NCBI GenBank assembly: GCA_002687025.1
Contig: NYZG01000444.1
Coordinates: 1-42,544 of the forward strand
DNA: 42,544 nt
Source: Candidatus Poribacteria bacterium
GTDB taxonomy: Bacteria; Poribacteria; WGA-4E; GCA-2687025
Direction of reading: 5' to 3'
The notes under the pieces are model-generated. The model was not told the origin of the DNA. It ran no database searches and saw nothing but the letters and a program-made list of their open reading frames with translations. The translations under genes were made by a program, and so were the position numbers. Position 1 is the stretch's first letter; the number at the start of each line of letters is the position of its first letter. Shown here one piece after another: positions 145 to 38,814 of the stretch.

Positions 145-2007
145 GTGGCACTCGTCGACGGCGCAGAAGTCCTGCTCAACGCCGCCGCCACACCCAGGGA
201 CGACGTGACGTTCTCGGTCGCGAGCGCCCCGCAGCCCAACATCAGTGTGACGCCGACCGCGCTCGCACTGCCAGACACGCAGGTGGAAGGCTCGAGCTCC
301 GACACCGTCACCATCGCGAACACGGGGACCGCGACGCTGACGGTGAGCGACATCGCCTCGGACAGCGCCGCATTCACGGTTTCCACCTCGCCCGCGCCAC
401 CATTCGACTTGCTCGCACAGGACCCGGACCTCAGTCAGACGGTGACGGTGACGTTCATGCCCGTGGCGGAGGGCGCCCAGGCGGCGAGCATCACGATCAC
501 CCACAACGCGGCGGGCAGTCCCACCGTCATCACCGCGACGGGGACGGGCACGACTGCGACCGGACCCGCGGCGGACGCGGTCACCGTCGTCGATTCCCAG
601 GGATCGGCGGGAGACGATGTTATCGTGCCGATCAGCATCTTCGATGTCGCCACGGCGCCGGAGGTCGTGGCAGGCGGCGATCCGGTCGCGGGCATCGACC
701 TGACCATGACCTATGATGCGGCGTTGCTGACGCCTGTATCAGACGCAACTGGCACGATCGCCGCCGCCCTCGGCTCCATCGTTCCGTTGGAGTGGTCGAT
801 CGAGCAGAACGTCATCACGCCGGGTGAGTTGGAGATCGTCCTCGCGGGCGCGTTCGACAAGCTGCTTGCCGGCGCCGGCACGCTCGTGAACGTGACGTTC
901 GCCGTGGACGCCGGCGCAGTCACGAACACAACGAGCCCCGTCGGTCTGTCGCGCGCACGGTTGAACGACGGCGCCGTCGCCTCGACTCCAGTCGGCGGCA
1001 CGTTTGCCGTCGTCAACTTCATGTATGGCGACGTCACAGGCAACGGGGACTGGGGCGGATTCGACGGTGCGCACGTGCTGGAACACGTTGCTCAGGCGCT
1101 CCTGGCCGGAGACCACACGTTCCCGATCGAACTCGCGGCCCCCGTCTGGGCGCCACTGCCGCTGACGGAGGCAGAAGCCGATTCAGTAGCAGACGTCGAC
1201 CAGAGCGCCGACGTCACGGCGATGGACGCTTCGCTCATACTCCAAGCGGCGGTCGGAATCCTGGCCGATCTGCCCGTGGCTCCACCGGCGTCTCCGGCCA
1301 TCTCGGCGGCGCGTGCGGCCTACGTGATCAATGGCGCGGCGACGTCCGAGCGGCCCGGCGCGCACATCACACTCACCCTCGACGCCTCCACGATGGCCGG
1401 CCTCCGCGCGGGCGAACTCGTCCTGGAGTTCGACGGCGCGCTGTTGAGACCAGTGGACGTCTCGCTGAGACACGGCGCAACCGACGACAACGCGCAGCGT
1501 CCGCTGCTGGTTCAGCGTGAGGGAGACGGGCGTCTCGCCGTAGCGTTCGCCTCGGCGCGGCCCATAGAGGCGTCTGACGCGCTCCTCGAAGTCACGTTCG
1601 AGGCGACGCGCGACATTTCACGCGCGAGGGAGAGCGCGATCCGCGCGTCTCACCTGCGACTCAACCGGTCGCTAGTGGAAACGGACTTCACGTTGCCGTT
1701 CCGCATCGAGCCGTTCCAGACTCGGCTCATGGCGAACTACCCGAACCCGTTCAACCCGGAGACGTGGATTCCGTTCGAACTGGCCGAGGCCGCGGATGTG
1801 ACGGTCCGCATTTACGGCCTCGACGGCGGCCTCATGCGGAAGCTGGAGCTGGGAGCGCGGGCAGTCGGCGAACACGTCGGGCGTGAAGACGCGGCCTACT
1901 GGGATGGCAGGAACACGGACGGCGAGGCGGCCGCCAGCGGAGTATACATCTACGAGCTCACAGCGGGCGACTGCCGCGCGCTGCGCAGGATGGTCGTGAT
2001 GAAGTGA
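145..2007 (+). CDS. Large surface/scaffold protein. Modules: Ig-like (ASH / choice-of-anchor-D-like), cohesin-like, dockerin-like, second cohesin-like, and a FlgD-Ig / T9SS-type C-terminal domain. No signal peptide; possibly 5'-truncated.
   Basis: 620-aa ORF with strong G/C third-position bias. GTG at 145 is the first possible start; the frame is open only back to nt 88 and has no ATG. Dockerin-like paired Ca-loop segments: GDVTGNGDWGGFDGAHVLEH and ADVDQSADVTAMDASLILQAAVG (about nt 1021-1263). Cohesin-like stretches lie on both sides (V.VPISIFDV...GIDLTMTYDAALL; ...ELVLEFDGALLRPV...). C-terminus: NYPNPFNPETWIPFEL...AAYWDGRN...SGVYIYEL. Domain names come from motif recognition, not a search. 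Confidence 0.8.
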   Translation: MALVDGAEVLLNAAATPRDDVTFSVASAPQPNISVTPTALALPDTQVEGSSSDTVTIANTGTATLTVSDIASDSAAFTVSTSPAPPFDLLAQDPDLSQTVTVTFMPVAEGAQAASITITHNAAGSPTVITATGTGTTATGPAADAVTVVDSQGSAGDDVIVPISIFDVATAPEVVAGGDPVAGIDLTMTYDAALLTPVSDATGTIAAALGSIVPLEWSIEQNVITPGELEIVLAGAFDKLLAGAGTLVNVTFAVDAGAVTNTTSPVGLSRARLNDGAVASTPVGGTFAVVNFMYGDVTGNGDWGGFDGAHVLEHVAQALLAGDHTFPIELAAPVWAPLPLTEAEADSVADVDQSADVTAMDASLILQAAVGILADLPVAPPASPAISAARAAYVINGAATSERPGAHITLTLDASTMAGLRAGELVLEFDGALLRPVDVSLRHGATDDNAQRPLLVQREGDGRLAVAFASARPIEASDALLEVTFEATRDISRARESAIRASHLRLNRSLVETDFTLPFRIEPFQTRLMANYPNPFNPETWIPFELAEAADVTVRIYGLDGGLMRKLELGARAVGEHVGREDAAYWDGRNTDGEAAASGVYIYELTAGDCRALRRMVVMK

Positions 2008-8556: not shown

Positions 8557-9039
8557 AGTGCGACGGTGACGGCGACGGTCAATCGGAGAACGTGTCATCG
8601 CGAAATCGGCGTACATTACCGAGCCCGCGGATGCACGCGTTCCCTCCGAGCAACGCCGCCACTCTTACAAGATGCACGCAGAGGGCGTGTGGTTACGGTG
8701 GATTGCTCCAGGCGCCGTCGTCTGTGCGAGAGCCCCCTGTGACGATCGCGCCGCGCGGAACGCGTACTTGGACGACGCCGCGTACGCGATCTACGGGTGC
8801 CCGCAGGGCATCTGGGAACGCCCCGAGCGGCAGATCCACGATCGACGTCGCGGAGCCGGCCCGCGCCGGACGTTCCAACGTGAAGCCTGAGCGCGTGACG
8901 TGCGCTGAGGGCCATCCCGTTGCAGAATACCGGGCCGGTAGGAGCCGCCCGGATGACAGAGGGCCCGCCCGCGAAGTCGTCGCTTCCGGCTGCCTCCGGC
9001 GATGGGGACACGCCACGTAGCGCATGCGAGGAGGAATAC

Positions 9040-9789
9040 GTGCCGCAGGATAGGCGCGCGCCGAAGGTCGTGAGCGAAGCGGACGTCCAGTCCTACGAGG
9101 AGCAGGGATATCACCTGGGTCGCGGCGTGCTCGCCGCGGACGAGTGCGACGAGATCATCGGGCGGGCCGAGGAGCTACACGCGAGGAAGCACGTACCCGG
9201 CTGCTTCCGCGCCGCGGACGTGGACGAATCCGACGGCGATCCTCTCCGCGTGTACCCACGCATGATGCACCCGCATCGCGTCGACGACCGATGCCTGCAC
9301 TACCTCACGCATCCGAGCGTCGTCGCGATTCTGCGCGACCTGCTGCGCGACGGCGTGACGGCGCTCCAGAGCATGTTCTACTGGAAGCCGCCCGGCGCCC
9401 GTGGCCAGGCGTACCACCAGGACGACTTCTACCTACAGACGAAGCCCGGCGCCTGCATCGCCGCGTGGACCGCCCTGGAACGCATCGACGCGGAGAACGG
9501 CGCGCTGCGCGTGTTCCCCGGCTCGCACGCTGAGGACATCCTCGACATGCTTCCGACGAACACGGCGTTTTCGTTCACGTCCGAGGCCGTGACCCCTCCG
9601 GCGCAGTACGCGAACACGCTCGTCGAAATGGACAAGGGCGACGTCCTGTTCTTCGACGGAAGGCTGATACACGGTTCATTGCCCAACGTGTCCGACGAGC
9701 GCTTCCGCCGCGCGTACATATGCCACTACATCCCGGAATCTGCAGCTTCATACAACCACGGTTACGATCCGGCGATACCGCTGCGCTAG
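9040..9789 (+). CDS. Phytanoyl-CoA dioxygenase (PhyH) family Fe(II)/2-oxoglutarate oxygenase
   Basis: HxD motif in AYHQDDFY and a distal His in LIHGSLPN. I prefer GTG 9040 because GAGGAGGAA sits at 9028-9036 and third-position GC drops upstream. The ORF also allows ATG 8920 or 8953. Confidence 0.8.
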   Translation: MPQDRRAPKVVSEADVQSYEEQGYHLGRGVLAADECDEIIGRAEELHARKHVPGCFRAADVDESDGDPLRVYPRMMHPHRVDDRCLHYLTHPSVVAILRDLLRDGVTALQSMFYWKPPGARGQAYHQDDFYLQTKPGACIAAWTALERIDAENGALRVFPGSHAEDILDMLPTNTAFSFTSEAVTPPAQYANTLVEMDKGDVLFFDGRLIHGSLPNVSDERFRRAYICHYIPESAASYNHGYDPAIPLR

Positions 9790-9831
9790 CGGCGACGCGT
9801 TCAGCCGCCCGAGCACTTGGAAGGAACACCC

Positions 9832-10974
9832 ATGTCCGACAGCCCCGCGCGCGTAGGCATCATCGGCTGCGGCACGATCAGCGCGACGTATCTCGGTAAC
9901 GCGCCCAACTTCCCGTCCTACGACATCGTCGCGGTGTCCGACCTGCGTCTCGACGCGGCCCAGGCGCGCGCCGAGGAATTCGGCGTCGACAAGGCGTGCA
10001 CGCCGGACGAGTTGCTCGCCGACGACGACATCGACATCGTCATCAACATCACTCCGCACTCCGCACACGGGGCGGTCGGCATCGCGGCGCTGGAGGCCGG
10101 CAAGAGCGTCTATATCGAGAAGCCGATGGCCGTCGCCCTCGAAGACGCTCAACGCATGATGGACCTGTCCGCGGAGAAGGGCCTGCGAGTCGGCGCCGCT
10201 CCGGACACGTTCTTCGGCGGCACGTGGCAGACCGCGCGCGCGTTGATCGATGAGGGCGCCATCGGGGAGCCCATCGGCGGCTTCTCGTGCATCCAAATCC
10301 GCTCCGCTGGGCCGTGGCGCGAGGGCGATGCAGAGGCAGCCGCGAAGGCGAGCGAAGGCTATCGGAGCTTCTACGCCACGAACTTCTTCGAGTTTGGCGT
10401 CACGTGGCTATTCGACCGGGGGCCGTACTACCTGCACGCGCTCATCAACCTCCTCGGCCCGGTGGCACGCGTCACGGGATCGGCGCGGAACACGTGGCCG
10501 GAGCGCAGTCGGGGCGGGTCGAAGGTCCCGTGCGACACGCCGACGAACTTCTCCGGCGTCCTCGACTTCGCTAACGGCGCGCTGCTGACGTTCATCAACT
10601 CCTCCGATGTCGCGGGCATGGGGCTGCCGCACGTCGAGATATACGGCAGCGAGGGGTCGCTCCGCTGTATCGACCCGAACAACTTCGGCGGGACGCTCTA
10701 CCTGCGCAAGGCGGGCAGCCGCGAGGACGAACCCATCGAGCCGCGATTCCCGAATACCGACAACAAGCGCGGCATCGGCCTGGCGGACATGGTCGTGTCG
10801 TCGCGAGCGGGCAGGCCGCATCGGGCGAGCGGCGAGATGGGTCTCCACACCGTCGAGATATGCCACGCGCTGCACGACGCGTCCGCCGAGAACCGGCACA
10901 TCCACCTGAAGACGACGTGCGACCAACCGGCGGCCATGCCCGCCGGCCTCGCCGATTGGGAGGTCCCGGCGTAG
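9832..10974 (+). CDS. Gfo/Idh/MocA family NAD(P)-dependent oxidoreductase
   Basis: ARVGIIGCGTIS Rossmann motif; VYIEKPMA (EKP motif). ATG 9832 is preceded by GGAAGGAA. Confidence 0.9.
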   Translation: MSDSPARVGIIGCGTISATYLGNAPNFPSYDIVAVSDLRLDAAQARAEEFGVDKACTPDELLADDDIDIVINITPHSAHGAVGIAALEAGKSVYIEKPMAVALEDAQRMMDLSAEKGLRVGAAPDTFFGGTWQTARALIDEGAIGEPIGGFSCIQIRSAGPWREGDAEAAAKASEGYRSFYATNFFEFGVTWLFDRGPYYLHALINLLGPVARVTGSARNTWPERSRGGSKVPCDTPTNFSGVLDFANGALLTFINSSDVAGMGLPHVEIYGSEGSLRCIDPNNFGGTLYLRKAGSREDEPIEPRFPNTDNKRGIGLADMVVSSRAGRPHRASGEMGLHTVEICHALHDASAENRHIHLKTTCDQPAAMPAGLADWEVPA

Positions 10975-11130
10975 ACCACGTCACGTCACACCACGCCGCA
11001 GATGGGCGTGCAGGGCCGCGGCCGCGTGGTGTCCATTTGCCTCGCGGCGCTCGGGGGCGCTAGGGTTGTGTAGCTGACGCTACCGGCGCGCCTCGCGCGC
11101 CATCCGGTCACAAGTCTTGAGGAGTTCGGC

Positions 11131-11901
11131 ATGGCACTGAGATATATGGCAGTACGTGGTATGAGAAGGGCCCTGACGTTCGGGGCGATAGCGTGCCTCG
11201 CCACCGGCGCGTTTGCCCAGCAGTTCGTGACGGACGGACTCGTCACGATGTACACGCTGGACGAAGCGCACGTCGACGGCGACGTTATCACCGACATCAT
11301 CAGCGGCAACGACGGGAAGATCATGGGCGGCGGGCCGGCGTTCGTCGACGGCGTCATCAACGAGTGCGGCGAATTCGACGCCTCCGGCGGCTACATCGAG
11401 ATCCCCAACCTAGGCGACTGGACCTCCGTGACGCTCGAGTGCTGGGCTATGCAGCACGCATTCGCCGGCATCCAGGGCATCGTCTCAACGTGGGCCTGGG
11501 TCGCCGGCAAGGTCCACTTCAAGTTCCAGGACAACGAGATCCAAGTCGACAAGAACGCCGGCTCGAAGATCCGCATGACGGGGCCGGAAGAGAACGTCTG
11601 GTACCACATCATCTATACGTCGGACGAGGACTCCGCTGAACTGAAGCTGTACGTTGACGGCGAGTTCATCGCCGAAGGCGGTGGCGGGAACAACCCTGAG
11701 AACATGCAGGAGCGTCGCATCGGCAGCGAACACGACGGGCGCTTCCTGAACGGCAAGGTGGACGAGGTCCGCATCTACGACCGCGTTCTCACCGAGGACG
11801 AAATCGCCCAGAACTTCGAGGTGGACTCGAACACGCTCTCCGTCGATCCGGCGGGGAAGATCGCCATGACGTGGGGCCGCCTCAAGAACCTGGCCCGCTA
11901 G
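11131..11901 (+). CDS. Secreted LamG (concanavalin A-like lectin/glucanase) domain protein with C-terminal VDPAGK..TWG.LK tag
   Basis: GAGGAG 6 nt upstream of the ATG. Signal peptide ...ALTFGAIACLATGAFAQQ. LamG-type end: GKVDEVRIYDRVLTEDEI. Paralogous in layout to 38056-38814. Confidence 0.85.
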   Translation: MALRYMAVRGMRRALTFGAIACLATGAFAQQFVTDGLVTMYTLDEAHVDGDVITDIISGNDGKIMGGGPAFVDGVINECGEFDASGGYIEIPNLGDWTSVTLECWAMQHAFAGIQGIVSTWAWVAGKVHFKFQDNEIQVDKNAGSKIRMTGPEENVWYHIIYTSDEDSAELKLYVDGEFIAEGGGGNNPENMQERRIGSEHDGRFLNGKVDEVRIYDRVLTEDEIAQNFEVDSNTLSVDPAGKIAMTWGRLKNLAR

Positions 11902-11927
11902 ACCCGCGACCACGCAGACACGACGAT

Positions 11928-11961
11928 CGACGCGCTCCCGCCCGAAGGCGGGGGCGCGTCG
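11928..11961. terminator. Bidirectional hairpin terminator: 14-bp stem (one G-U pair) with a CGAA tetraloop
   Basis: GACGCGCTCCCGCC-CGAA-GGCGGGGGCGCGTC at 11929-11960, between the convergent stops at 11901 (+) and 12033 (-). No U-tract. Confidence 0.55.
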
Positions 11962-12032
11962 TCGCGTACGCACCCGTCGTGCGGCGCGGGCCTCCGCTGT
12001 CCCGGCCCATCGATCGCGGAGGCCGCCCGGGT

Positions 12033-12524
12033 TCAGATCCCGAGCAACTCGCACACGCGCTGTTTGACGCCGCGCCGCCCGGCATCCTCGCGGGCCGCAT
12101 GCAGCAGATCGAGAACCCGGTCGGTGGCCTCCAAGACCTTCCCTTCGGTGGATGGGGATAGCGAGGCGTGCAGGTCCGACTGCACCGCGGGTATGAGCAC
12201 GCTCCACGCCTCCGGCCGCCTTCCATGGCGCGCGCGGAACAGGGCGAGTAGCGATTCCGGCGAGTTGACGTAGTGTGTGGCGCCGGGTGATGGCACGTCC
12301 ACGACGGTCGTCACGCGCACGGGATCGTCTTCGTCGGCGTCGTAGGTTCCGACGAAGACGACGACGCCGACATCCGCCATCGCTTCCGCATGCGCCCTCG
12401 TGAGGTGTTCGACGCTGTATGTCCAAACGCCTGGGGCTTCGCGTAGCGCGACGGCATCGGCCACCGCCCGACCTGCCGCCCTGTCTCCTCGGATGTTGCT
12501 GCCGTAGCCGATGACCATTGCCAT
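12033..12524 (-). CDS. Hydrogenase maturation protease-like protein (HyaD/HybD/HycI family), orphan
   Basis: 163 aa from MAMVIGYGSNIRGDRAAGRAV... (family motif G.GN.LRGDDG.G), then an acidic DADEDDP stretch and a His in GATHYVNSPESLL. GGGAGAG lies upstream of ATG 12524. Assignment is by motif only. Confidence 0.55.
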   Translation of the reverse strand: MAMVIGYGSNIRGDRAAGRAVADAVALREAPGVWTYSVEHLTRAHAEAMADVGVVVFVGTYDADEDDPVRVTTVVDVPSPGATHYVNSPESLLALFRARHGRRPEAWSVLIPAVQSDLHASLSPSTEGKVLEATDRVLDLLHAAREDAGRRGVKQRVCELLGI

Positions 12525-12762
12525 GATTCTCTCCCGTCGGTCCCTCTGTGTAAGCAGTAGCCCGACGGCCGTCAGATCAGGCATGCCACGTTTGGGAACG
12601 TCCTCGGCGCCGTGACGGTCGGGGCGCATTCGGGAACGAAACGGGGGTCCGAGATCGTCGTGGGAGCGAAGTCCTGAGCCCGCGACCCAAGCAGCGCTCG
12701 CGTGAACCGCGCCGTCGCCGTACACTCGGCTTCGTAGAGCGACCCGGGTGGAGGAGCAAGCC

Positions 12763-13860
12763 GTGGACAGTGGCATCAAGGTGGCGGTCGTCGGTCTTGG
12801 GTTCGGGGCGTCGTGGGTTGCGACGTATCTGGATCATCCGGCGGTGGCCGAGGTGGCCATCTGCGATCCCGACGCCGACCTGCGCGCGCGCGTCGCGGAG
12901 CGCCATGGGATCGAAGCCGCGTTCGAGTCGTACGACGACCTGTTGCGCACGGGTCGCTACGACGCGGCGCACCTTCTGACGCCGATTCCTCTGCACGTCG
13001 AGCAGACGCTGGCGGCCCTGGACGCAGGGGTGCACTGCGCGTGCGCGATCCCGATGGCCATGAGCATCGCGGACCTGGAGCGGGTCGTGGCCGCGCAGGA
13101 CACATCGAGCGCGGTCTACATGCTCATGGAGACGGCCGTCTACTCGAATTCCGCTCTGTACGTGCGCGATCTGGCGGAGTCGGGCGCCTTGGGCGAGCTG
13201 CAGTTCCTGCGCTGCGCGCACTACCAGAACATGGAGGGCTGGCCGGACTATTGGAAGGACCTGCCGCCCATGTACTACTCGACGCACGCGCTCGGCCCCG
13301 TGCTCGCCGTGGCTGGGAGGCCCGCGGCGAGTGTGCAATGCCTGGGCTCGGGGCGCCTGCCGGACGACCTTCTGGGAGACTACGACAGCCCGTCGCCCGT
13401 GCAGACCGCGCTGGTGCGGCTGGAGGACTCGCCCGTGGTGTGTGAGGTGACGCGCTGCCTGTTCCAGATGACCCGCGGGTTCCAGGAGCGATTCGACGTG
13501 TACGGCGACCGGATGGCGTTCGAGTGGCCGCAGATCGACGGCGAAGACCCGGTCGTCTTCCGCGTGGAATCCGGGCCTCTGCCGCCGGGACGCAGAAGCC
13601 GCCCGACATCGGTTGAACGCGCGACGCTCCCGGACTTCGCCGACCGTGTCCCCGAGGAACTGCGAGGACATATCCGAGGCGGCACGGCCGGCAACTTCCG
13701 ACCGCACATGGTCCACGAGTTCGTATCCGCCGTCCTCGACCGGCGATTCCCCGCGATCGACGCGCGCGTCGCGGCGAACTGGACCGCGGTAGGCATCTGC
13801 GCCCACGAGTCCACCATGAATGACGGCGCCAGCGTGCCCATCCCGACGTTTGGAGCCTGA
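12763..13860 (+). CDS. Gfo/Idh/MocA family oxidoreductase (atypical; the EKP motif is replaced by AIPMA)
   Basis: IKVAVVGLGFGASW Rossmann motif. GGAGGAG lies 6 nt upstream of GTG 12763 (the ORF is open from 12748). Confidence 0.8.
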   Translation: MDSGIKVAVVGLGFGASWVATYLDHPAVAEVAICDPDADLRARVAERHGIEAAFESYDDLLRTGRYDAAHLLTPIPLHVEQTLAALDAGVHCACAIPMAMSIADLERVVAAQDTSSAVYMLMETAVYSNSALYVRDLAESGALGELQFLRCAHYQNMEGWPDYWKDLPPMYYSTHALGPVLAVAGRPAASVQCLGSGRLPDDLLGDYDSPSPVQTALVRLEDSPVVCEVTRCLFQMTRGFQERFDVYGDRMAFEWPQIDGEDPVVFRVESGPLPPGRRSRPTSVERATLPDFADRVPEELRGHIRGGTAGNFRPHMVHEFVSAVLDRRFPAIDARVAANWTAVGICAHESTMNDGASVPIPTFGA

Positions 13861-17390: not shown

Positions 17391-18221
17391 CTATCGATCG
17401 GCGCGCTCGGCCCTCAAATGACCCCACGTGACGGGCACCTTCCCGCCGGCCTCTACGGCGGCGAACGCGGATTCGCCCCCCAGCCATCCGATGACGTTGC
17501 TCGTGAGCTGCTGAAGCTGCCCGATATCCTCGTTGTTCTCGTGGTAGGTCGGCAGGCGCCAGTTCATGTTGAAGACCTTGCCCGCTCCCGCCTCCCAGTA
17601 GCCAAAAGCGGCGATCCTGTCGGTCCAGTCGTCGCCCGGTGGCCCCCACGCGCCCGCGAGGGTGATGAAGTCCGTCCATATCGTGTCGAAGTAGTCGCCG
17701 CTCTTGGGGAAGCCGGTGGAGTTCACCTGCACGCGGACGCCGGCCTTGGGCGGGTCGCCGTCTATATCGACCAGGCCGTCGACCAGGCCCAGGTCTACGG
17801 TCTCGTCCATGACGGTGATTCCGACGTTGACGCCGTCATCTGCCGTGGGCCCGAACTGTCGCGCGTCGGCGTCCTCGAGTCCCATCGGCGTGGCGTATCG
17901 GATCGCCCAGGCGGTCAGCAGGATGGACCCGCCGGCCTCGGCGTAGTTCACGAGGGCGTCGATCTCACCGTCTGACAGGGCGCCGGGGTCGGTGTCGCCG
18001 TCGTGCCACCAGACCACGCCGAAGCGCCGCAGGTCGTCGCCTTTGAGGTCGCCGCGATCTATCCGGGTGGCGTCGAGGTCCGCCATCGCGAAGTCGATTG
18101 CCGGGGCGGTGAAGGGCCCTTCGTCGCCCAGCGCCATGATGGCGATGCCCTGCGCCGCGGCGGTCGCGCCTGTCAGTATCAGTACGGCCGAGATCGCGGC
18201 CGAGATCGCTCTGTGCGCCAT
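17391..18221 (-). CDS. Secreted hypothetical protein (possibly a class I glutamine-amidotransferase-like / ThuA-like fold) with C-terminal VEAGGK..TWG.LR tag
   Basis: GGGAGGAG upstream of ATG 18221. Signal peptide MAHRAISAAISAVLILTGATAAAQG. C-terminus AVEAGGKVPVTWGHLRAERADR. The fold suggestion is weak. Confidence 0.7.
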   Translation of the reverse strand: MAHRAISAAISAVLILTGATAAAQGIAIMALGDEGPFTAPAIDFAMADLDATRIDRGDLKGDDLRRFGVVWWHDGDTDPGALSDGEIDALVNYAEAGGSILLTAWAIRYATPMGLEDADARQFGPTADDGVNVGITVMDETVDLGLVDGLVDIDGDPPKAGVRVQVNSTGFPKSGDYFDTIWTDFITLAGAWGPPGDDWTDRIAAFGYWEAGAGKVFNMNWRLPTYHENNEDIGQLQQLTSNVIGWLGGESAFAAVEAGGKVPVTWGHLRAERADR

Positions 18222-18301: not shown

Positions 18302-20029
18302 TCAGCAGCTTCCCGCGCGATACGCGGCGATCAGGTCCGACACCGCGAGGGCGCGGTCGTAAAGCCTCAGCCGCTCGATCCCCGAGGTCGTGAGGATTCG
18401 GACGGACGCGGTCCGCGCAGCGGCCACGTCCATGTCGGCATTCAGTCTCCCCCAGCCGAACTGCCGATGCTCGCCGCCATCGTTCAGTTTGCCGTCGACG
18501 ACGAACAGCACCTGCCGCGGCCCGGGATCCACGATCACGCCGACGTGGTGCGCGCGACCGGTTTCGAGCAGACCCGGGTCGCATTCCCAGCGGCTCTCGG
18601 CCATGCCATCGCTCAGCATCAGCTCGACCGCGCCCGCGTCTGTGCGTTCCATCGCGATGCCGGAGCCATCCGCGGCGCGACCATCGACGAGCACGCCGCG
18701 CGTCCCGGGCGCGTCGAGCCTGAACCACAGGTCCAACGTGAGCCCAACCCCCGCGTTCACCGGCGAGAGAAGGTCCAGAGTAGACGCGTGAGCGACATCG
18801 GCGCCCGCGACGTCGAGGGTCAGCCCTTCCTGCGTCACCCCGCGACGCGTGAACTGATCCCACAGCCGGTCGAAGAACTGCGGCCGAATCTCATGAACGC
18901 GAGCGACCGTCTTCTGCGTCTCCGTCAGGAAGTAGCGGCCGTCCTGCTCCACGAGGTCGGGATAGCTCATGCGCGTCGCTGGGTCATCGTCGTACAGGGC
19001 GATCTCCGGCTGAGACCACGCGATGAGCTTCCCGTCCGGCGAGTCGATCTCGACGCCTCCGCACATCCACACGGGGTTGCGGCCGAAGTAGTCGCGGCCG
19101 CCGTGATTGTGGAACCAGTAGAGGTACTTGCCGTTCGAGCAACGCCATACGAAGTTCGCGGCCCGCGGATGCTTCATCGGTCGGCCGTCGACGTACGCCT
19201 TGTATCGCGGCTCCGTCCACGTGTGGCCACGGTCACGGCTGTACGCGTGGCACGGCTGACCGTCCACCGTTCGGTAGACGACGTAGAACGACCCATCGCT
19301 CAGGACGCAGTAGCTCTGTTCCTCCGCGATGGGCCCGCCACCGGGCGGCGTGCGCAGGCCGGCGTCGCCATCGGGCAGCGTGTCCCACGAGAGCTTCCCG
19401 ACATCGGGTTCGGTAAGAATGTTCGGGCTGCGGACGAGGACGCCTTCGGAGCGCGTGAAGAAACCGTGCCCGAACCCTCCCACCTTGTGAAGGGACATGT
19501 AGGCGTCGCCGTCGTGCGTGAACGGCCGGCCGACGTTCCAGAAGAAGCGGACGCTCCCGCCATAGGCGTTCGCCCGGTCGATATCGAACTCGCGAACCGG
19601 CATGCGGCCCCGTTCGGCCGACCACGTGCGGCCATGGTCGTCGCTGTGCTTGAAGACGTAGTAGCCGACGGAATCGACGCGCGTACACTTGCCGCCGGCG
19701 TATGGCGGGTCGTCGGCGATCACCTCGCGCCGGTTGTCCGTGTTGTGGTTGTAGAAGCAGTAGACGCGCCCGTAGGAGGTCCTGAGCAGCACGGCGTAGG
19801 ACGCCTCGGGTCCGTCTGCCGGCTCGACAACGGCGCGGTCGCCCCACGTCTTGCCCAGGTCGGTGCTGCGCATCGTGACGACGTGTTGTCCCGGTTGACC
19901 CTCGTGTCCGCCGCCGGTCGTGACGGCGCACAGCCAGGCGCCATCGTCGGTCCGCACGATGTACGGCTGATCGGCATAGGACTCGGTGGGAATCTCCGAG
20001 CCGTTCACGATGTTCCTCGGGTCGCTCAT
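18302..20029 (-). CDS. BNR/Asp-box sialidase-like (exo-alpha-sialidase family) protein fused to a C-terminal LamG domain; no signal peptide
   Basis: AAGGAG 6 nt upstream of ATG 20029 (MSDPRNIV...). Three Asp-boxes: STDLGKTW, SDDHGRTW, SRDRGHTW. C-terminal LamG-type ...HHVGVIVDPGPRQVLFVVDGKL...LRLYDRALAVSDL. The 84-aa upstream ORF extension is rejected. Confidence 0.85.
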   Translation of the reverse strand: MSDPRNIVNGSEIPTESYADQPYIVRTDDGAWLCAVTTGGGHEGQPGQHVVTMRSTDLGKTWGDRAVVEPADGPEASYAVLLRTSYGRVYCFYNHNTDNRREVIADDPPYAGGKCTRVDSVGYYVFKHSDDHGRTWSAERGRMPVREFDIDRANAYGGSVRFFWNVGRPFTHDGDAYMSLHKVGGFGHGFFTRSEGVLVRSPNILTEPDVGKLSWDTLPDGDAGLRTPPGGGPIAEEQSYCVLSDGSFYVVYRTVDGQPCHAYSRDRGHTWTEPRYKAYVDGRPMKHPRAANFVWRCSNGKYLYWFHNHGGRDYFGRNPVWMCGGVEIDSPDGKLIAWSQPEIALYDDDPATRMSYPDLVEQDGRYFLTETQKTVARVHEIRPQFFDRLWDQFTRRGVTQEGLTLDVAGADVAHASTLDLLSPVNAGVGLTLDLWFRLDAPGTRGVLVDGRAADGSGIAMERTDAGAVELMLSDGMAESRWECDPGLLETGRAHHVGVIVDPGPRQVLFVVDGKLNDGGEHRQFGWGRLNADMDVAAARTASVRILTTSGIERLRLYDRALAVSDLIAAYRAGSC

Positions 20030-20105
20030 GTTGAGCTCCTTCAGCGAAGCAGACTCGGCAGTACTCCGACTCGCGGAGTCTCGATGAGCTCGCGCCGGGC
20101 GTCCT

Positions 20106-21152
20106 TCACCGCTTGGCCTCGGGCCCGTCGATGGATCCCAGCGCGCGCAACGCCGGAGACGCCGCGCCGTGCGCGTCGAAGAGCGCGTTCCGGCCGCCGT
20201 ACCAGATATGCAAGCCGTGCGTGGGGATGGACTCCGGGTACCACCACAGGACGCCGATCCCGCGGCCGTCGGGAGTCGCACGAACCGTTGCGATCAGCTC
20301 GCTCAGGAAGTCGCGTTGGCCGTCGGGGGTCGTGGGCCAGCGCATGCGGGCCTTCCAGCCGTCGGCGGCGCGGAAATCGGTTGTCGCGTAGGGATACGCG
20401 GTCTCCACGAGCAGAATGTCCTTGCCGAAGTCCCGGGAGGCGGCTTCGAGGTTCTCCCGCACGTCGTCCATCGACCCGTGCCACCAGGGGTAGTAGCTCA
20501 GCGCGATGACGTCGTAGTCGATGTCATGCTCGGCGATGTGATCGAAGAACCACTTCGTGGCGCCGCGGCTGGCTCCCTTGTCGATGTGCAACGCTACGCG
20601 GGCCTCCGGCGCGGCAGATCGCACGCCGTCCACGCCCGCGCGGAGGAGGCGCGCGAAGTTGTCCCACTGTTCGTCGGGGTCGCCCGCGTCGTAGAGCTTC
20701 CCGTCCGGCCACAGCATGCCGGGCGTTACTTCGTTGCCCACCTGCGCGATGTCCGGCGCGGCTCCGGCTTCGGCGAGGGTTGCGATCGCCTCGACGGTGT
20801 GGTCGTGGACGGCAGCCGCGAGCGCGTCCAGATCGAGATCAGCCCACGCCTTGGGTTTGTGCTGATGCGCGGGGTCGGCCCACGTGTCCGAGTAGTGGAA
20901 GTTCAAGAGGAAACGCGCGCCTGCGTCCTTGATCCGCTTCGCGAGTTCTGCGGTGTACGGCAGGTCGTTCACGACGACGCCCTGGTGATTCGGGGCCACG
21001 AACAGACGCAGTCGGAAGCAGTTGCAGCCGTGACGGCGCATTATCGCGATGGCATCGTCGGGCTTCCCACCATCCGTGTAGCGCGCGCCCTGGCGTTCGA
21101 GGCGTCTGAGCGCGGAGATGTCACCGCCGATGAGGAAGTCGGGAGATGTCAC
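20106..21152 (-). CDS. Glycoside hydrolase family 53 (arabinogalactan endo-beta-1,4-galactosidase); no signal peptide
   Basis: GGDISALRRLE..., FRLRLFV, FHYSDTWADP, acid/base context VGNEVTPGMLWP, nucleophile context LLVETAYPY. GTG start at 21152. Confidence 0.88.
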   Translation of the reverse strand: MTSPDFLIGGDISALRRLERQGARYTDGGKPDDAIAIMRRHGCNCFRLRLFVAPNHQGVVVNDLPYTAELAKRIKDAGARFLLNFHYSDTWADPAHQHKPKAWADLDLDALAAAVHDHTVEAIATLAEAGAAPDIAQVGNEVTPGMLWPDGKLYDAGDPDEQWDNFARLLRAGVDGVRSAAPEARVALHIDKGASRGATKWFFDHIAEHDIDYDVIALSYYPWWHGSMDDVRENLEAASRDFGKDILLVETAYPYATTDFRAADGWKARMRWPTTPDGQRDFLSELIATVRATPDGRGIGVLWWYPESIPTHGLHIWYGGRNALFDAHGAASPALRALGSIDGPEAKR

Positions 21153-22804: not shown

Positions 22805-23208
22805 GGCGTCTCCTCCTGTACGCGACACTATCTCATGTGCGGGCGCGTGAGACACGATCCGCTCCGGCCCGCCGTCTCACGCCGCTGTAGGCGCCACTCG
22901 CCGTTCGCCGCGGTCGAAGCATCCCACGCCTACCTGCGCCTCGTGTGCGATGCCATCCGTCCTCTCGGCGGGCGCCCGCGAGAAACGGGTGCACGGATGT
23001 GTCGCCGCGTCCCACTATACCCATGCCGTGTGCGTGCCGGAGCGTGCTGTAGAAGTGCCCGGCGCGACCGAAATCTCCCTACTACCAAGGGGGATGGGCG
23101 GCTGTTCGTGATGAGGCCCGGCGCGAAACGTGCATCCACGCGTACGTGAAATAGGGCATACTGTGCCCCGCGCGATCGCGCCCGTCCGTCAAGACCAGGG
23201 TGAGTTGC

Positions 23209-25170
23209 ATGATCTTCGTCAGACGCGCGCTTCTGCTTGCGACGTGTGTCGCGGTGGCGGGAGCCGCTCATCAAGCGCACGGCCAAGAGGTGTACAGCCT
23301 CTTCGGCAAGCTGTTTCTGTCGGGTCGTGTCGAGTACGACTTCACGCAGCGCCGCGACTTCCTCACCGACGTCGAGGACCATCACGTCCAACAGAACGAG
23401 TTCGACTTCGACCGCATCTTCCGGCGCGGCTTCCACAGCGTGATGATCATCGAGGAACAGGCGGGAGCTACGAAGAACATCCTCAGCCTCGGTGAGGTGC
23501 CCACTACCTTCACGCGTCTGAGCTTCGACCAGGTGGACATGACGGGCGTACGCTGGGATGTGCGCGGCAAACGCACCGACTGGTCCGCGATCATGGTCCC
23601 CGGCTCTCTGAACCCGGTGATTGGGCAGGAACACATCACGGGGTCCGGCGTCGGTCTGCGTCAGGTGACGAAGACGTCCCGTGCGAAGTACGGCGCGGCG
23701 TGGTACTTCCGCGAGACGCCCGTCCTGTCGGTCGACGTCGAGGCGAGCTTCACAAACATAGGCCGCAAGGCGGAGTTCGCGATCACTCCCAAGGGCTCCG
23801 TGACGAACGACCTGCGAGGACGCGCCGACGCGTCGGCCGCGGTTTACAAGGAGTTCCACACGATCGGCGACACGATCGTCCAGTTGGAGGCGTTCCGCGT
23901 CGGCCCTCACTTCGACGCCTCACGATCCGTCGGCGACAACGACGACCAGGACCGTTATACCGACAACACGCCGTTGGACCCACCGTCGAAGATCATCCCG
24001 GGAGACCTCGACAAGAACGACAACGGCGTCTTCGACTACGAGGACGATGTCCTTCTGTTCGACGTCGACGAGGACTTCCTGGACGAAGGAGACCGCAACA
24101 ACAACGGCGTCCGCGATCAGGAAGAGAACGACAAGGACCCGAACTACGAATTCGACGCGGCCAGACGCGGCCTGCGGCTGTGGCTGACGCGGCGGAAGTC
24201 CACGCGCGACACGGCCACGGACGTGGACCTCGGCGTGCGCTACGAGACCACCCTCGGCGACGAGGATGTCACGCCGCACGCGACGGCGACAAAGCTCTTC
24301 TCGAACGTCGAACACCGCCGAACCGTCGGGAAGGCGTCCGTGTTGCAGCTCGACAACGAGCTGAAGTACGTGCGAGACGCGATCCCCGACGAGACGTGGC
24401 ACTTCGCGGCGCGGCTGAGCCCCGCGGAGGCCGCGGCATATCGCGCCCTTCCCAAGACGGCCGCCCTCGAAGCGGCGGGCGAGATTGGCTTCCTCGAATT
24501 CGAGGGCGTCACCGAGGTCGAGCGCAGACGCCGCGACCCGATCTCGATGCAGAACGACATCATCAACACGACCAAGCTGACGTGGGAATACTCGGGGATA
24601 CGACAATTCGTCGCGACGGCCCGTGCGAAGCTCCAGTACGACCTGGACATCGACGGAGAAGACGAACAGTACGAGGTGGGCATCCTGAAGGCGCGCTACA
24701 CATTCCGCCCGTCGAAGAAGCTCGAAGTCAGTCCGATGCTGAAGTACACCGTCCGCGACGGCTTCCGGCGGGACGAGGCGCGCCTGGAAGATGTCGCCGT
24801 CGCGGATTTCGTGACCGGCGATGACGGAATCGAGGTACCCAGCGAGGTAGAACGCGTGCGACTGCGGCGCATCGACGAGACGGACGTGCGCGACATGGCG
24901 ACGGCTGTCATCCTCCGCGTCGAGAACCAATTCACGCCGACTATCCGGCTAACCGGCGGCGTGCAACTGCTCCTGTTCGACGATCTGCTGGAAGACGACA
25001 ACGACTTCATCCGGCAGGCGGTGCTCGCCGAGATGGAGAAGAGCTTCCAGGCATACAACCGCGACATGTTCCTCCACATCGGCGCGCGGTACATCGATCA
25101 GCGGGCGCGAGGCGACCTGAACGACGCGAACTTTATGGAGACCTTCGTCCGCGTTTTCGCGAAGTTCTGA
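23209..25170 (+). CDS. Outer-membrane beta-barrel protein (uncharacterised family) with an acidic thrombospondin-type-3-like Ca-binding insert
   Basis: Signal peptide MIFVRRALLLATCVAVAGAAHQAHG/QE. Alternating-hydrophobic strands throughout. Terminal ...ETFVRVFAKF (C-terminal Phe). Acidic insert at nt 23935-24156. The ORF is also open from GTG 23200. Confidence 0.8.
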   Translation: MIFVRRALLLATCVAVAGAAHQAHGQEVYSLFGKLFLSGRVEYDFTQRRDFLTDVEDHHVQQNEFDFDRIFRRGFHSVMIIEEQAGATKNILSLGEVPTTFTRLSFDQVDMTGVRWDVRGKRTDWSAIMVPGSLNPVIGQEHITGSGVGLRQVTKTSRAKYGAAWYFRETPVLSVDVEASFTNIGRKAEFAITPKGSVTNDLRGRADASAAVYKEFHTIGDTIVQLEAFRVGPHFDASRSVGDNDDQDRYTDNTPLDPPSKIIPGDLDKNDNGVFDYEDDVLLFDVDEDFLDEGDRNNNGVRDQEENDKDPNYEFDAARRGLRLWLTRRKSTRDTATDVDLGVRYETTLGDEDVTPHATATKLFSNVEHRRTVGKASVLQLDNELKYVRDAIPDETWHFAARLSPAEAAAYRALPKTAALEAAGEIGFLEFEGVTEVERRRRDPISMQNDIINTTKLTWEYSGIRQFVATARAKLQYDLDIDGEDEQYEVGILKARYTFRPSKKLEVSPMLKYTVRDGFRRDEARLEDVAVADFVTGDDGIEVPSEVERVRLRRIDETDVRDMATAVILRVENQFTPTIRLTGGVQLLLFDDLLEDDNDFIRQAVLAEMEKSFQAYNRDMFLHIGARYIDQRARGDLNDANFMETFVRVFAKF

Positions 25171-34420: not shown

Positions 34421-34609
34421 CGTGGGAGTGCGCTCATGCGCGCTGGAGGTTGTGCGCCGCGCTTCCGGGCCGGATGCGCGGCGATCGTGGCGCTACTCGT
34501 CCGCCAAAGGATTGCTTTTCCCGTACCGCTTCAACGACGGCAGACCGGTTCGCAGGTTACGGATGTGCGTCTTTCGGGCGGAACGCCGGCGCAGGATGGA
34601 GAGAGCTTC

Positions 34610-36133: not shown

Positions 36134-37875
36134 AGATCCAGCCCGTGGCGGAAGTAGCCTTCAACGTGGTGGCGTCCGACGGGAGCTTCGACCGGGACCT
36201 GCGCCTCGGCGTCGGTCCCGAGGGCTCCATTGAGACCGGCCCGTCGACCACGGGCAGCATCACGGACATGACGGCCGAGCAGTCGCCACCGGAGGCCCCC
36301 GGGACCTCTTTCCGTGCCTGGATCGCCAGCACGGGCGCCCTCCTGCGGGACATCCAGGAGATCAGCTCGTCGCCGGTCACCCGCTCGTGGCCCATTTACG
36401 TGCGCACGGGTACTACCGGCGCCGACTCGATCCTACGCTGGTATGCCCCCGACGTGAACGCGCTCGTAATGCAGCTCGACACCTCCACCGGCGTGCCGCA
36501 CTCGGCGACCATCGCCGACCTGGCCACCGGTGAAACCTGGGAACTCACGGGCGACGTGTGGGGCGAGATTTACCTGGCGGACAACCGGTCGTACAACTTC
36601 GACGTGGTGTTGACGCCGTCCGCGGGGGAGACGTTCGTCGATGGGAATCTGATCGCCGGCTGGAACCTCGTATCGGTCCCGGGCATCGGAGATCTGAGCA
36701 ACCTCGACGCGATGTCGAACTCCGCGTTCGTGTGGAACGGCCAGTATCAGGGCGTCGGGTTCCTGACGCAGGCTGAAGTGCCGGCCGTCACGGCGGGCGT
36801 CTTCATCAACTCCAACGGCGGGGCATACGGCCTCAATGTGGACGTTGACAGCTCGTCCATACGGGATGTCACGGCGTATCTCAACGCGGGATGGAACCTC
36901 ATTGGGGCGCCGTCCAACGTGGATTCGGGCTCCGGCCTTCCGGTCAGCAACGTCACGTCGCAGTTCAACAACCAGGCCGCCGTGTTCGCGTACGACCCGA
37001 GTAGCCGCAGCTACACGTTGGCGAATGAACTCGTCGCGGGCAATGGGTATTGGGTCTACAACGACACCGGCACGCAGGTAGATGTCCAGCTCACGCAGCC
37101 GCGCCACCTCGGCCCGGACGGTTCGTCTCTGTTCCACCCGGCGCAGATGGCGGCCGCGCCCGCGTTGTCGAGCCTCGACTGGAGCCTGCCCGTCACCCTC
37201 GCGGCGGAAGACGGCTCGCTGCGCACCGTGCAACTGGGGCTGAGCTCCGACGCGTCGGTCGGCTACGACCGGCTCGACGTCCCGATGCCTCCGCCGCCGC
37301 CGGTTCGGGCGTACTCGCAGCTCTACGTCGCCGTCGACGACGCGGTCGGGCGACTGACCCGAAGCGTCCAGGCGATGGAGCGCAGCGGGACCGAGTGGGT
37401 GATGAACGCGCGCATAGACGGCTCATCGGGTGTCATCGAGTGGCAGCGGCCGAGCGTGCCGGAGCACTGGCGTCTCACCATGCAAGCGGGCGGCAGGCGC
37501 GTGGACATGGCCGAGAGGCAGTCGTTGGCGCTCACCGGCGGCACGCACGATCTCCGCGTCACGCTGACGTGGATCGCCCCGACGGCCACGCGGCTCATGC
37601 CGAACTACCCGAACCCGTTCAACCCCGAGACGTGGATCCCGTTCGAGCTGACGCAGGCAGCGGATGTGACCGTTCGCGTGTATGGGCAGGACGGCGCCGT
37701 CGTCCGCACGCTGGAGCTCGGCTACCGCGCCGAGGGTTACTACACCGGCATCGGGGACGCGGCGTATTGGGATGGTCGCAACGAATCGGGCGAGCAGGTC
37801 GCCAGCGGCGTGTATCTCTACGAGCTGCAGGCCGGCGAGTACCGCGCGATACGCCGCATGGTGATCCTCAAATAG
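36109..37875 (+). CDS. Same adhesin-like protein, C-terminal part in the -1 frame (ORF open from 35986), ending in the FlgD-Ig / T9SS-type C-terminal domain
   Basis: Coding-quality sequence continues in the other frame from ...PVTASLSVKIQPVAEV. Repeated GWNL[VI] motifs. C-terminal NYPNPFNPETWIPFEL...AAYWDGRN...SGVYLYEL. No independent RBS or signal peptide. Confidence 0.75.
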   Translation, partial: PVTASLSVKIQPVAEVAFNVVASDGSFDRDLRLGVGPEGSIETGPSTTGSITDMTAEQSPPEAPGTSFRAWIASTGALLRDIQEISSSPVTRSWPIYVRTGTTGADSILRWYAPDVNALVMQLDTSTGVPHSATIADLATGETWELTGDVWGEIYLADNRSYNFDVVLTPSAGETFVDGNLIAGWNLVSVPGIGDLSNLDAMSNSAFVWNGQYQGVGFLTQAEVPAVTAGVFINSNGGAYGLNVDVDSSSIRDVTAYLNAGWNLIGAPSNVDSGSGLPVSNVTSQFNNQAAVFAYDPSSRSYTLANELVAGNGYWVYNDTGTQVDVQLTQPRHLGPDGSSLFHPAQMAAAPALSSLDWSLPVTLAAEDGSLRTVQLGLSSDASVGYDRLDVPMPPPPPVRAYSQLYVAVDDAVGRLTRSVQAMERSGTEWVMNARIDGSSGVIEWQRPSVPEHWRLTMQAGGRRVDMAERQSLALTGGTHDLRVTLTWIAPTATRLMPNYPNPFNPETWIPFELTQAADVTVRVYGQDGAVVRTLELGYRAEGYYTGIGDAAYWDGRNESGEQVASGVYLYELQAGEYRAIRRMVILK

Positions 37876-38055: not shown

Positions 38056-38814
38056 ATGACTGCTCGACACGGATGCACGGGTCGGGCCATCGCGATCGGT
38101 CTAGCGCTTGCGGCGATCGGCTTTGGCGCGGAGGCCGCCAGCACGAGAGAGCAGTACGGTCTCGTCGCGCTGTGGACCTTCGACGCGGCCACCGTCGCCG
38201 GCGGGGAGGTCGGCCCGGAGTTCGGCGAGAACCCAGGCACGCTCGTCGGCAAGCCTGAAGCCGTGGCCGGATTCCGTGGTGAGGCCCTGTCCTTCGATGG
38301 CGCCGTCGACTACGTGAAGATGACCGACGACATCTTCTTCCCAAGCGTGACGATGGAGGCGATCATCCGCCCGACCCTCGGCAGCCGCAATCCCATCTAC
38401 GACAAGTACAACTACGGCATCCAGCTCAGCGACGCCAACCAGGTCGGGATATGGATACGCGACGACAAGGAGCAGTGGCCGCAGGTCTACACCCCGTGGC
38501 CGACCGACGGCGCGTGGCATCACGTGGTAGGCGTTGCGGAGGACGGCGAGAACGTGCGCATCTATCTCGACGGCAAGCTGAAGGGTACCGCGCCGGCGCC
38601 GAATTCCATCGACATACCCTATGGGGCGGGACAGAAGCCGACGGTGGCATATACGCAACATCTCGGGGGCATATGGTACGAGGGCGATGTCGACGAAGTG
38701 GCGATCTACGAGGGAGCGCTGACCGATAAGGAGGTCGGCGTCCTGTACGGCCTGTCGCTCCGCGTGGACCCAGCCGGAAAGGCCGCGTCGACGTGGGCGA
38801 CGATGAAGCGATAG
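38056..38814 (+). CDS. Secreted LamG domain protein with C-terminal VDPAGK..TW..MK tag (paralogue-like to 11131-11901)
   Basis: AGGAGGAAG upstream of ATG 38056. Signal-like MTARHGCTGRAIAIGLALAAIGFGAEA. LamG end GDVDEVAIYEGALTDKEV. C-terminus RVDPAGKAASTWATMKR. Confidence 0.85.
   Translation: MTARHGCTGRAIAIGLALAAIGFGAEAASTREQYGLVALWTFDAATVAGGEVGPEFGENPGTLVGKPEAVAGFRGEALSFDGAVDYVKMTDDIFFPSVTMEAIIRPTLGSRNPIYDKYNYGIQLSDANQVGIWIRDDKEQWPQVYTPWPTDGAWHHVVGVAEDGENVRIYLDGKLKGTAPAPNSIDIPYGAGQKPTVAYTQHLGGIWYEGDVDEVAIYEGALTDKEVGVLYGLSLRVDPAGKAASTWATMKR

Follow-up and report, generated by a model that had tools for sequence, protein, structure and literature searches.

The closest described counterpart of the element reported here is the type A C-terminal domain (CTD) of the type IX secretion system (T9SS; TIGR04183 or PF18962, Por_Secre_tail, with an FlgD_ig-like fold). 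The element itself is a 17-residue tag that ends three secreted proteins encoded in a 42,544-nt stretch of DNA (hereafter the window, meaning the whole stretch analysed; contig NYZG01000444.1 of a Candidatus Poribacteria bacterium). Poribacteria are a major uncultured phylum of sponge-associated symbionts. Like the T9SS CTD, the tag lies at the extreme C-terminus of Sec-exported proteins, is found lineage-wide and is borne by many unrelated cargo proteins. In contrast to that CTD, an immunoglobulin (Ig)-like domain of 70–100 aa on large cargo, it has no Ig-like fold and sits on small single domains. The signals of the LPXTG/sortase, PEP-CTERM/exosortase and MYXO-CTERM/myxosortase systems combine a motif, a transmembrane helix and a basic cluster (PMC11980579). 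The tag resembles these tripartite signals in being a short motif near the C-terminus of exported proteins, phylum-wide and borne by paralogous and unrelated proteins, by extrapolation dozens to hundreds per genome, but it has no transmembrane helix and no known intramembrane or cysteine transpeptidase partner. On our analysis, the tag probably serves as a signal for protein sorting or anchoring that has not been described before.

In the six-frame translation of the window (G+C content 67%), the pattern V-[DE]-[PA]-x-G-K-x3-T-W-[GA] was found three times, each time 1–6 residues ahead of a stop codon, and GK...TW occurred at three sites only, 12–17 residues ahead of the stop. The carriers are two LamG proteins, encoded at 11131-11901 (+) and 38056-38814 (+), which end in ...LSVDPAGKIAMTWGRLKNLAR and ...LRVDPAGKAASTWATMKR, and a ThuA-like protein encoded at 17391-18221 (−), which ends in ...AAVEAGGKVPVTWGHLRAERADR, each followed directly by the stop codon. 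All three begin with a basic n-region, a hydrophobic h-region and an AxA-like site. The back-translated DNA pattern GTNGANSCNNNNGGNAARNNNNNNNNNACNTGGGS matched 3 times, whereas 100 dinucleotide-preserving shuffles of the window gave an expectation of 0.00. Synonymous positions vary among the three DNA copies, which indicates conservation and selection at the peptide level and rules out a nucleotide-level element. The preliminary description of this stretch had noticed the motif shared by three proteins with signal peptides, and the translations, the pattern scan and the shuffles all bear this out. It had called the three proteins unrelated, which is true of the ThuA-like protein; the two LamG carriers are paralogues.

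We built a 17-column hidden Markov model (HMM) from 18 tags and ran it, at a threshold of at least 10 bits, on all stop-to-stop segments in six frames of 120 pattern-selected loci and the window, together 967 kb of Poribacteria DNA. Nearly all matches (194/197) end no more than 15 residues from a stop codon, so that the enrichment at C-termini proposed as a check in the preliminary description is clear. The consensus is [LT]-[AP]-V-[ED]-P-x-G-K-L-x-T-T-W-G-x-[LI]-K, followed by a mostly basic tail and the stop. It is shared by about 70 tags lying outside the selecting DNA pattern (W in 71 of 71, V in 70 and the two lysines in 67 each). These unselected tags occur about once per 13–14 kb, and the window is alike, with 3 in 42.5 kb. 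Extrapolated to a genome of 5–6 Mb, this density would give a few hundred tagged proteins, a rough figure that is biased upwards because the loci were chosen for having a tag and because tagged genes often stand in tandem.

The tail beyond the final Lys measures 1–8 residues in nearly all of the 194 terminal tags (range 1–12, mode 3) and is rich in R, K, Q and Y; the terminal residue is R in 58, K in 28, Q in 28, Y in 20 and F in 10. Such tails leave no room for a sortase-type transmembrane helix, in agreement with the earlier remark that a hydrophobic helix of the LPXTG or PEP-CTERM type is missing. They also differ from the beta-signal of outer-membrane proteins, in which an aromatic last residue, usually Phe, ends the terminal beta-strand of a barrel. 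We rejected this candidate because the tagged proteins end mostly in R, K or Q and are soluble, with lectin-like or alpha/beta domains.

The tag is tightly linked to export. An N-terminal hydrophobic signal was called in 169 of the 172 complete carriers, as compared with 161 of 454 control open reading frames (ORFs) from the same loci, the calls being made with a hydropathy heuristic and not with SignalP. The expected co-occurrence with signal peptides is thus found, and no convincing lipobox was seen among the tagged carriers. Encapsulin cargo-loading peptides, microcompartment encapsulation peptides and the peroxisomal targeting signal PTS1 are comparable in that some 10–20 residues on a flexible link serve as a handle for a receptor. 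An encapsulin or microcompartment targeting peptide was nevertheless discarded as a candidate, since such peptides act in the cytoplasm and nearly all tag carriers have export signals. The carriers are Sec-exported, non-lipoprotein and mostly small, acidic and single-domain (median 267 aa, 5th–95th percentile 215–317 aa). Their mature domains have a mean net charge of −16, and the last 12 residues one of about +2. This contrast, together with an invariant Trp, would suit a non-specific cationic amphipathic anchor that holds acidic domains to lipopolysaccharide or anionic lipids. Such an anchor, which we regard as very improbable, would not require V, P, G, K, T, W and G to be nearly invariant and to keep a fixed spacing in 39 clusters of carriers; conservation this strict across the phylum and dozens of families suggests that the tag has a specific binding partner among proteins and does not act as a physicochemical anchor.

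With the tag removed, the carriers fall into these 39 clusters by BLAST similarity. The largest is LamG, with 83 members, and the representatives of others include CBM9, CBM_4_9, NPCBM, 3-keto-disaccharide hydrolase/DUF1080, DUF1349/GH43_C2-like and ThuA-like families; many clusters have no Pfam match at all. In the two LamG proteins of the window, the tag lies outside the Pfam domain Laminin_G_3 (Table 1), whose model is fully matched (2–151 of 151) and ends about 10 residues ahead of the tag. The sole Pfam result for the third carrier is a weak match to DUF4960; its AlphaFold2 model has a ThuA-like/GATase1-like fold, with 1t0b, a ThuA-like protein, as the top Foldseek match. After the carrier domain, 20–25 residues remain in the tagged window proteins. 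AlphaFold2 monomer models of the first LamG carrier and of the ThuA-like carrier, made from alignments of which one had 71 and the other 77 sequences, reached a predicted local distance difference test (pLDDT) score of 90–98 in the domains of both (94–98 in the LamG domain). The tags stayed outside the folds, with pLDDT 53–73 in the LamG carrier and 46–58 in the ThuA-like protein (aa 251–276). Among the listed homologues, the tag is kept in 120/120 for the ThuA-like protein, with 0–11 residues after it, and in 117/120 for the LamG protein; wherever named, the homologues of both are Candidatus Poribacteria. LamG domains in this genome can also do without it, as one closes a BNR/sialidase-like protein (18302-20281, −) that ends in …AAYRAGSC and has no tag.

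The tag is therefore a module in its own right and not the closing strand of any known domain: it falls outside the Pfam LamG domain, occurs on several folds, has low pLDDT and is absent from the LamG domain at 18302-20281. For the same reasons we rejected its assignment to the terminal strand of the Laminin_G_3/ConA-like domain, the outcome that would have deprived the preliminary description of its subject; the carriers form at least 39 clusters. The view that there is no separate feature, only chance similarity or the last strand of carrier domains, could appeal to the paralogy of the two LamG proteins among the three in the window. It retains hardly any probability in the face of the 0.00 matches expected by chance, the position outside the Pfam domain, the different folds, the low pLDDT and the untagged LamG domain.

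The tag is largely a feature of one lineage. A strict DNA pattern (V-x-P-x-G-K-[LIVMF]-x-x-T-W-G-x-[LIVMF]-K, about 40 bits) had 0 matches in 2.9 million viral contigs and at least 120 in a collection with one genome per bacterial or archaeal species. Among the matches listed, about 112 were titled Poribacteria, about 7 ‘uncultured bacterium’ and one ‘Deltaproteobacteria’, a very strong enrichment for one small phylum. The sole ‘Deltaproteobacteria’ match among them (L063:2639-2683, −) lies on a 3.7-kb contig, where the tag ends a short broken ORF after many stops, and is probably a mis-binned or frameshifted Poribacteria-like fragment. The named members of tagged protein clusters all come from Poribacteria or sponge assemblies.

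No Pfam or NCBIfam model (June 2026) covers the tag in the carriers, NCBIfam having also been run on the last 40–43 aa, and we found no description of such a tag in the literature on Poribacteria and C-terminal sorting signals. We infer that it is new among C-terminal sorting or anchoring signals. A profile search of the PDB returned no homologue, only local matches to NPTGKLPMTW in glycoside hydrolase family 3 (GH3) and AINPNGKL in designed repeat proteins, segments that we take to be beta-hairpin (strand-turn-strand) elements. The pattern V/N-P-x-G-K-L-x-x-T-W is shared locally with the segment ‘NPSGKLPxTW’ of GH3 and the hairpins ‘NPNGKL’ of beta-propellers, which suggests, by analogy, a strand-turn-strand shape for the tag. 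Unlike the tag, these segments are internal to large folds, and the likeness is local and without homology.

The relationship to the T9SS CTD goes further. As previously indicated, the window also encodes T9SS-like domains, and we located two, of about 90 aa, in the proteins at 145-2007 and 35986-37875. The first scored 28.2 bits with FlgD_ig and 19.2 bits with TIGR04183, under the cut-off of 23. The three tagged proteins and their last 40–43 aa gave no match to Por_Secre_tail, FlgD_ig or TIGR04183. The link emerged from the three non-terminal tags among the 197 HMM matches, all in FG-GAP/ASPIC proteins (L068, L080 and L108). Six residues past each of these tags comes NYPNPFNPETW…, belonging to a Por_Secre_tail/FlgD_ig domain that in L068 exceeds the TIGR04183 cut-off (24.1 vs 23). 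A metagenome scan for W-G-x-[LIVMF]-K, 3–10 residues and N-Y-P-N-P-F then returned 119 loci; 98 of them have a 6-residue spacer and 15 a 5-residue one. Positions that the search pattern did not force reproduce the tag in the 103 non-redundant proteins (V in 86, P in 68, K in 87 and T in 85). The spacer reads [RQK]-T-[EK]-L-[YFL]-Q, its last three residues being the canonical CTD start; L-[YF]-Q-N-Y-P-N-P-F is the usual beginning of this CTD class, and the tag stands 3 residues ahead of LYQNYPNPFNP.... The long form thus has the layout …TWGxVK-RTE-LYQNYPNPFNPETW…, and its three-residue gap equals the modal tail of tag-only proteins. In all, the tag precedes the CTD by 3 residues in 3 Poribacteria proteins and 103 distinct metagenome proteins. 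The cargo of the long form, which comes from Poribacteria or related lineages, consists of NHL, WD40 and FG-GAP propellers, with a median of 735 aa. The same metagenome contigs encode 31 tag-only proteins, including DUF1080, S8 peptidase and TolB-like propeller proteins. Eight tag-only metagenome proteins were present in the protein collection, one in a Candidatus Poribacteria cluster, two in clusters named ‘bacterium’ and the rest without an organism name.

A profile search with the ThuA-like family in 1.84 billion representative proteins recovered divergent tagged members (e.g. …VEPQGKIAAVWGELRAIP), whose named relatives are all from Poribacteria or sponge assemblies. Beyond Poribacteria, the ThuA-like homologues in Caldithrix (1279 aa) and P0285 (360 aa) have a T9SS CTD in the tag's place, so that tag and CTD are positionally interchangeable; several other distant homologues have neither. 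Since the tag is fixed three residues before the CTD in the long form, the short tag corresponds to the stretch ahead of the CTD on its own, cut off at the domain boundary and with none of the Ig-like CTD body. The preliminary description had imagined the last strand of a truncated sorting domain. The truncated form was essentially right, although the segment retained is the one before the CTD and not its last strand.

Our preferred reading, to which we would give a probability of roughly 45%, is that the tag is a C-terminal docking handle for the envelope apparatus that deals with CTD proteins. In this reading, whose hairpin shape, docking step, partner and final cargo location we infer, the tag would be exposed on the periplasmic side after Sec export as a short beta-hairpin-like peptide, consisting of a strand, a P-x-G-K turn and a second strand with the invariant Trp. 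The putative turn is conserved as well. This peptide would be bound specifically by part of the same envelope apparatus through which CTD proteins are handled, and its cargo would thereby be docked at, or sorted to, the outer membrane or the surface of the cell. Removal of the CTD from proteins with tag and CTD would leave the very C-terminus that tag-only proteins are born with. We prefer the docking handle because the tag is exclusive to exported proteins, is fixed before the CTD and occurs on membrane-tethered proteins.

The last point concerns proteins in which an extracytoplasmic function (ECF) sigma factor (Sigma70_r2/r4) is fused, through one predicted membrane helix at about residue 220–275, to a periplasmic NHL or FG-GAP propeller. 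Among paralogues of these fusions encoded on the same contigs, some have the bare tag as their C-terminus and others the tag plus CTD. Their C-terminus is predicted from this layout to be periplasmic and tethered to the inner membrane; a sorting-type C-terminus is unusual on an inner-membrane-anchored regulator. The tag on such fusions would have to be readable from the periplasmic side and could not be solely a signal for export of the whole protein.

This bears directly on a second explanation, in which the tag alone is a minimal autonomous secretion signal for an outer-membrane translocon or shuttle, T9SS-like or other. It would suffice for small folded cargo, while large cargo would need the Ig-like CTD, and later cleavage would be optional. 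The equivalent position of tag and CTD in the Caldithrix homologues, the size split between tag-only and tag-plus-CTD proteins (medians of 267 and 735 aa) and the strict linkage to signal peptides all speak for it. So does the strong conservation of residues that would point to either side of the putative strand (K8, L9, T11, T12, W13, G14, [LI]16 and K17). However, the tag is retained under selection before a complete CTD, where it would be redundant as a signal, and it ends ECF-sigma fusions that, being anchored in the inner membrane, could not be exported whole. To our knowledge, moreover, the known T9SS signals require a folded CTD. We therefore consider a minimal secretion signal rather unlikely.

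Alternatively, the tag could be an association peptide that binds other proteins instead of a dedicated machine, either by foldon-like self- or hetero-oligomerization, conferring avidity on lectin modules, or by binding in trans to the Ig-like CTD of untagged CTD proteins in a cellulosome-like surface assembly. The carriers are mainly single lectin or carbohydrate-binding modules (CBMs), to which multivalency would be an advantage. In the monomer models the tag is disordered, and in the long form it directly adjoins the CTD. Furthermore, 7 of the 10 CTD proteins in the Poribacteria sample lack the tag, including both in the window, one of which has a cohesin domain. On the other hand, a pure oligomerization tag would be expected on cytoplasmic proteins too, which is at odds with the export signals of 169 of 172 carriers, and the tag is also found on the ThuA-like protein and on a metagenome S8 peptidase and TolB-like propellers. 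Association of this kind seems unlikely to us. Its extension to a split sorting signal, in which the tag of small cargo would bind in trans the CTD of untagged proteins such as the cohesin/CTD protein at 145-2007, is decidedly unlikely. If it were true, a T9SS-like system would carry many small lectin, CBM and enzyme modules along as passengers or present them on its surface, and cellulosome-like surface assembly would proceed by a peptide-CTD contact instead of dockerin-cohesin.

Dockerin (PF00404) is a duplicated Ca-binding module of about 60–70 aa. The tag is comparable to the dockerin-cohesin system as a C-terminal module on carbohydrate-active proteins, in a window that also encodes a cohesin and CTD protein. 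It differs in having 17 aa and no duplicated repeat, and no dockerin model matched the carriers scanned. No dockerin was seen in the window or the sampled loci, and cohesin as the tag receptor is unsupported, the only one in the sampled loci being the window's own. The protein at 145-2007 (+) combines a choice-of-anchor-D/ASH Ig-like domain, the cohesin (PF00963, 6e-14) and the T9SS-like CTD. The second window CTD belongs to a pair of (+) ORFs, 34436-36133 and 35986-37875, which lie in different frames and overlap by 148 nt. The former encodes PPC and Calx-beta domains; the latter has an arginine-rich, non-protein-like start and the CTD end. The pair has the appearance of a single long CTD protein interrupted by a frameshift, whether genuine or introduced during assembly.

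The position of the tag also invites the idea of covalent processing or attachment, by a sortase-like or PorU-like cut or by a cross-link between the conserved Lys and either peptidoglycan or a glycolipid. A parallel is Braun's lipoprotein, whose C-terminal Lys is cross-linked to peptidoglycan. Two lysines, K8 and K17, are near-invariant (193/197 each), tail length is tightly limited, and the position of the tag coincides with the boundary at which T9SS CTDs are cut, by PorU as far as we know. Yet the conserved Lys is not the terminal residue, we know of no such consensus at the PorU cleavage sites of the T9SS studied, and no candidate enzyme was found beside tagged genes in the sampled loci. 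A covalent site is quite improbable.

Several observations weigh against the docking handle itself. No partner or machinery was found in the sampled loci, and in the AlphaFold2 models part of the tag forms a helix of low confidence and no hairpin. Both window CTDs score just under the TIGR04183 cut-off, so that ‘T9SS-like’ denotes a resemblance in sequence only. Most metagenome contigs with the long form have no taxonomic label, and the near-restriction to Poribacteria rests on the matches listed (at least 120), other phyla being possible. Finally, if the tag is solely an anchor acting after T9SS export, tag-only proteins would have no obvious route across the outer membrane. Taken with the evidence above, the notion of a distinct C-terminal recognition tag, advanced in the preliminary description, is supported, and a role in sorting or anchoring would be its likely function.

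In the window, the tagged LamG gene at 11131-11901 is flanked by a PhyH dioxygenase and two GFO/IDH/MocA oxidoreductases (window 8920-13860). In other Poribacteria, too, tagged genes most often have PhyH (31 loci) and GFO/IDH/MocA (18 loci) as neighbours, and TPR, WD40, FGE-sulfatase, aldo-keto reductase, sulfatase and DUF6785 proteins recur as well. These are abundant catabolic families of the phylum, and not obviously a sorting enzyme. A polytopic DUF6785 + DUF6784 protein with about 10 helices lies by or near tagged genes, mostly of the LamG cluster, in 8 of the 10 loci that contain it; it could be a transporter or a partner of tagged proteins. Elsewhere in the window, a 656-aa protein with a signal peptide (23200-25170, +) ends in …RVFAKF, with a terminal Phe as in outer-membrane barrels, and has no Pfam or NCBIfam match. 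Downstream of it are encoded a 223-aa protein with a Tat-like signal and then a 1391-aa lipoprotein with Reg_prop repeats.

Table 1. Tagged proteins, tags, T9SS type-A-like CTDs and related loci, with their coordinates (window positions unless a locus is given).
Feature	Position	Strand	Remarks
LamG protein 1, secreted, single-domain LamG/ConA-like lectin fold	11131..11901	+	256 aa; signal peptide ~aa 1-29 (..GAFA/QQ); Laminin_G_3 aa 84-226
Tag core, LamG protein 1	11836..11886	+	17 aa, LSVDPAGKIAMTWGRLK, aa 236-252; tag HMM 30.4 bits
Four-residue basic tail NLAR and stop codon, LamG protein 1	11887..11901	+	from translation
LamG protein 2, secreted, with signal peptide	38056..38814	+	252 aa; Laminin_G_3 aa 82-227
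Tag core, LamG protein 2	38758..38808	+	LRVDPAGKAASTWATMK, aa 235-251; tag HMM 25.7 bits
Stop codon after the 1-aa tail (R) of LamG protein 2	38812-38814	+	from translation
ThuA-like/GATase1-like alpha/beta protein, secreted	17391..18221	−	276 aa; AlphaFold2 and Foldseek
Tag core, ThuA-like protein	17412..17462	−	AAVEAGGKVPVTWGHLR, aa 254-270; tag HMM 26.1 bits
Tail AERADR, ThuA-like protein	17394-17411	−	stop 17391-17393
T9SS type-A-like CTD, …RLMANYPNPFNPETWIPF…RRMVVMK and stop	1732..2007	+	in protein 145-2007; no tag in this copy
Second T9SS type-A-like CTD, …RLMPNYPNPFNPETWIPF…RRMVILK and stop	37603..37875	+	in protein 35986-37875; no tag ahead
ECF-sigma fusion protein	L158:2213-5233	+	tag-only paralogues on L158 and L223
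ECF-sigma fusion protein	L173:1888-4332	−	
DUF6785 + DUF6784 protein	L043:5767-7878	−	further loci: L036, L065, L070, L075, L083, L086, L093, L094, L103

If the sorting role is true, the tag would be a new, very short and easily searchable C-terminal sorting signal of bacteria. The T9SS-like CTD has a conserved, separable front segment able to stand alone, and which part of it the envelope machinery reads thereby becomes testable. With the tag HMM, annotators could relabel thousands of proteins now called ‘hypothetical’ or ‘LamG domain-containing’. For the biology of Poribacteria, the tag defines a repertoire of secreted lectins and CBM proteins, which are candidates for the recognition of host glycans and sulfated polysaccharides.

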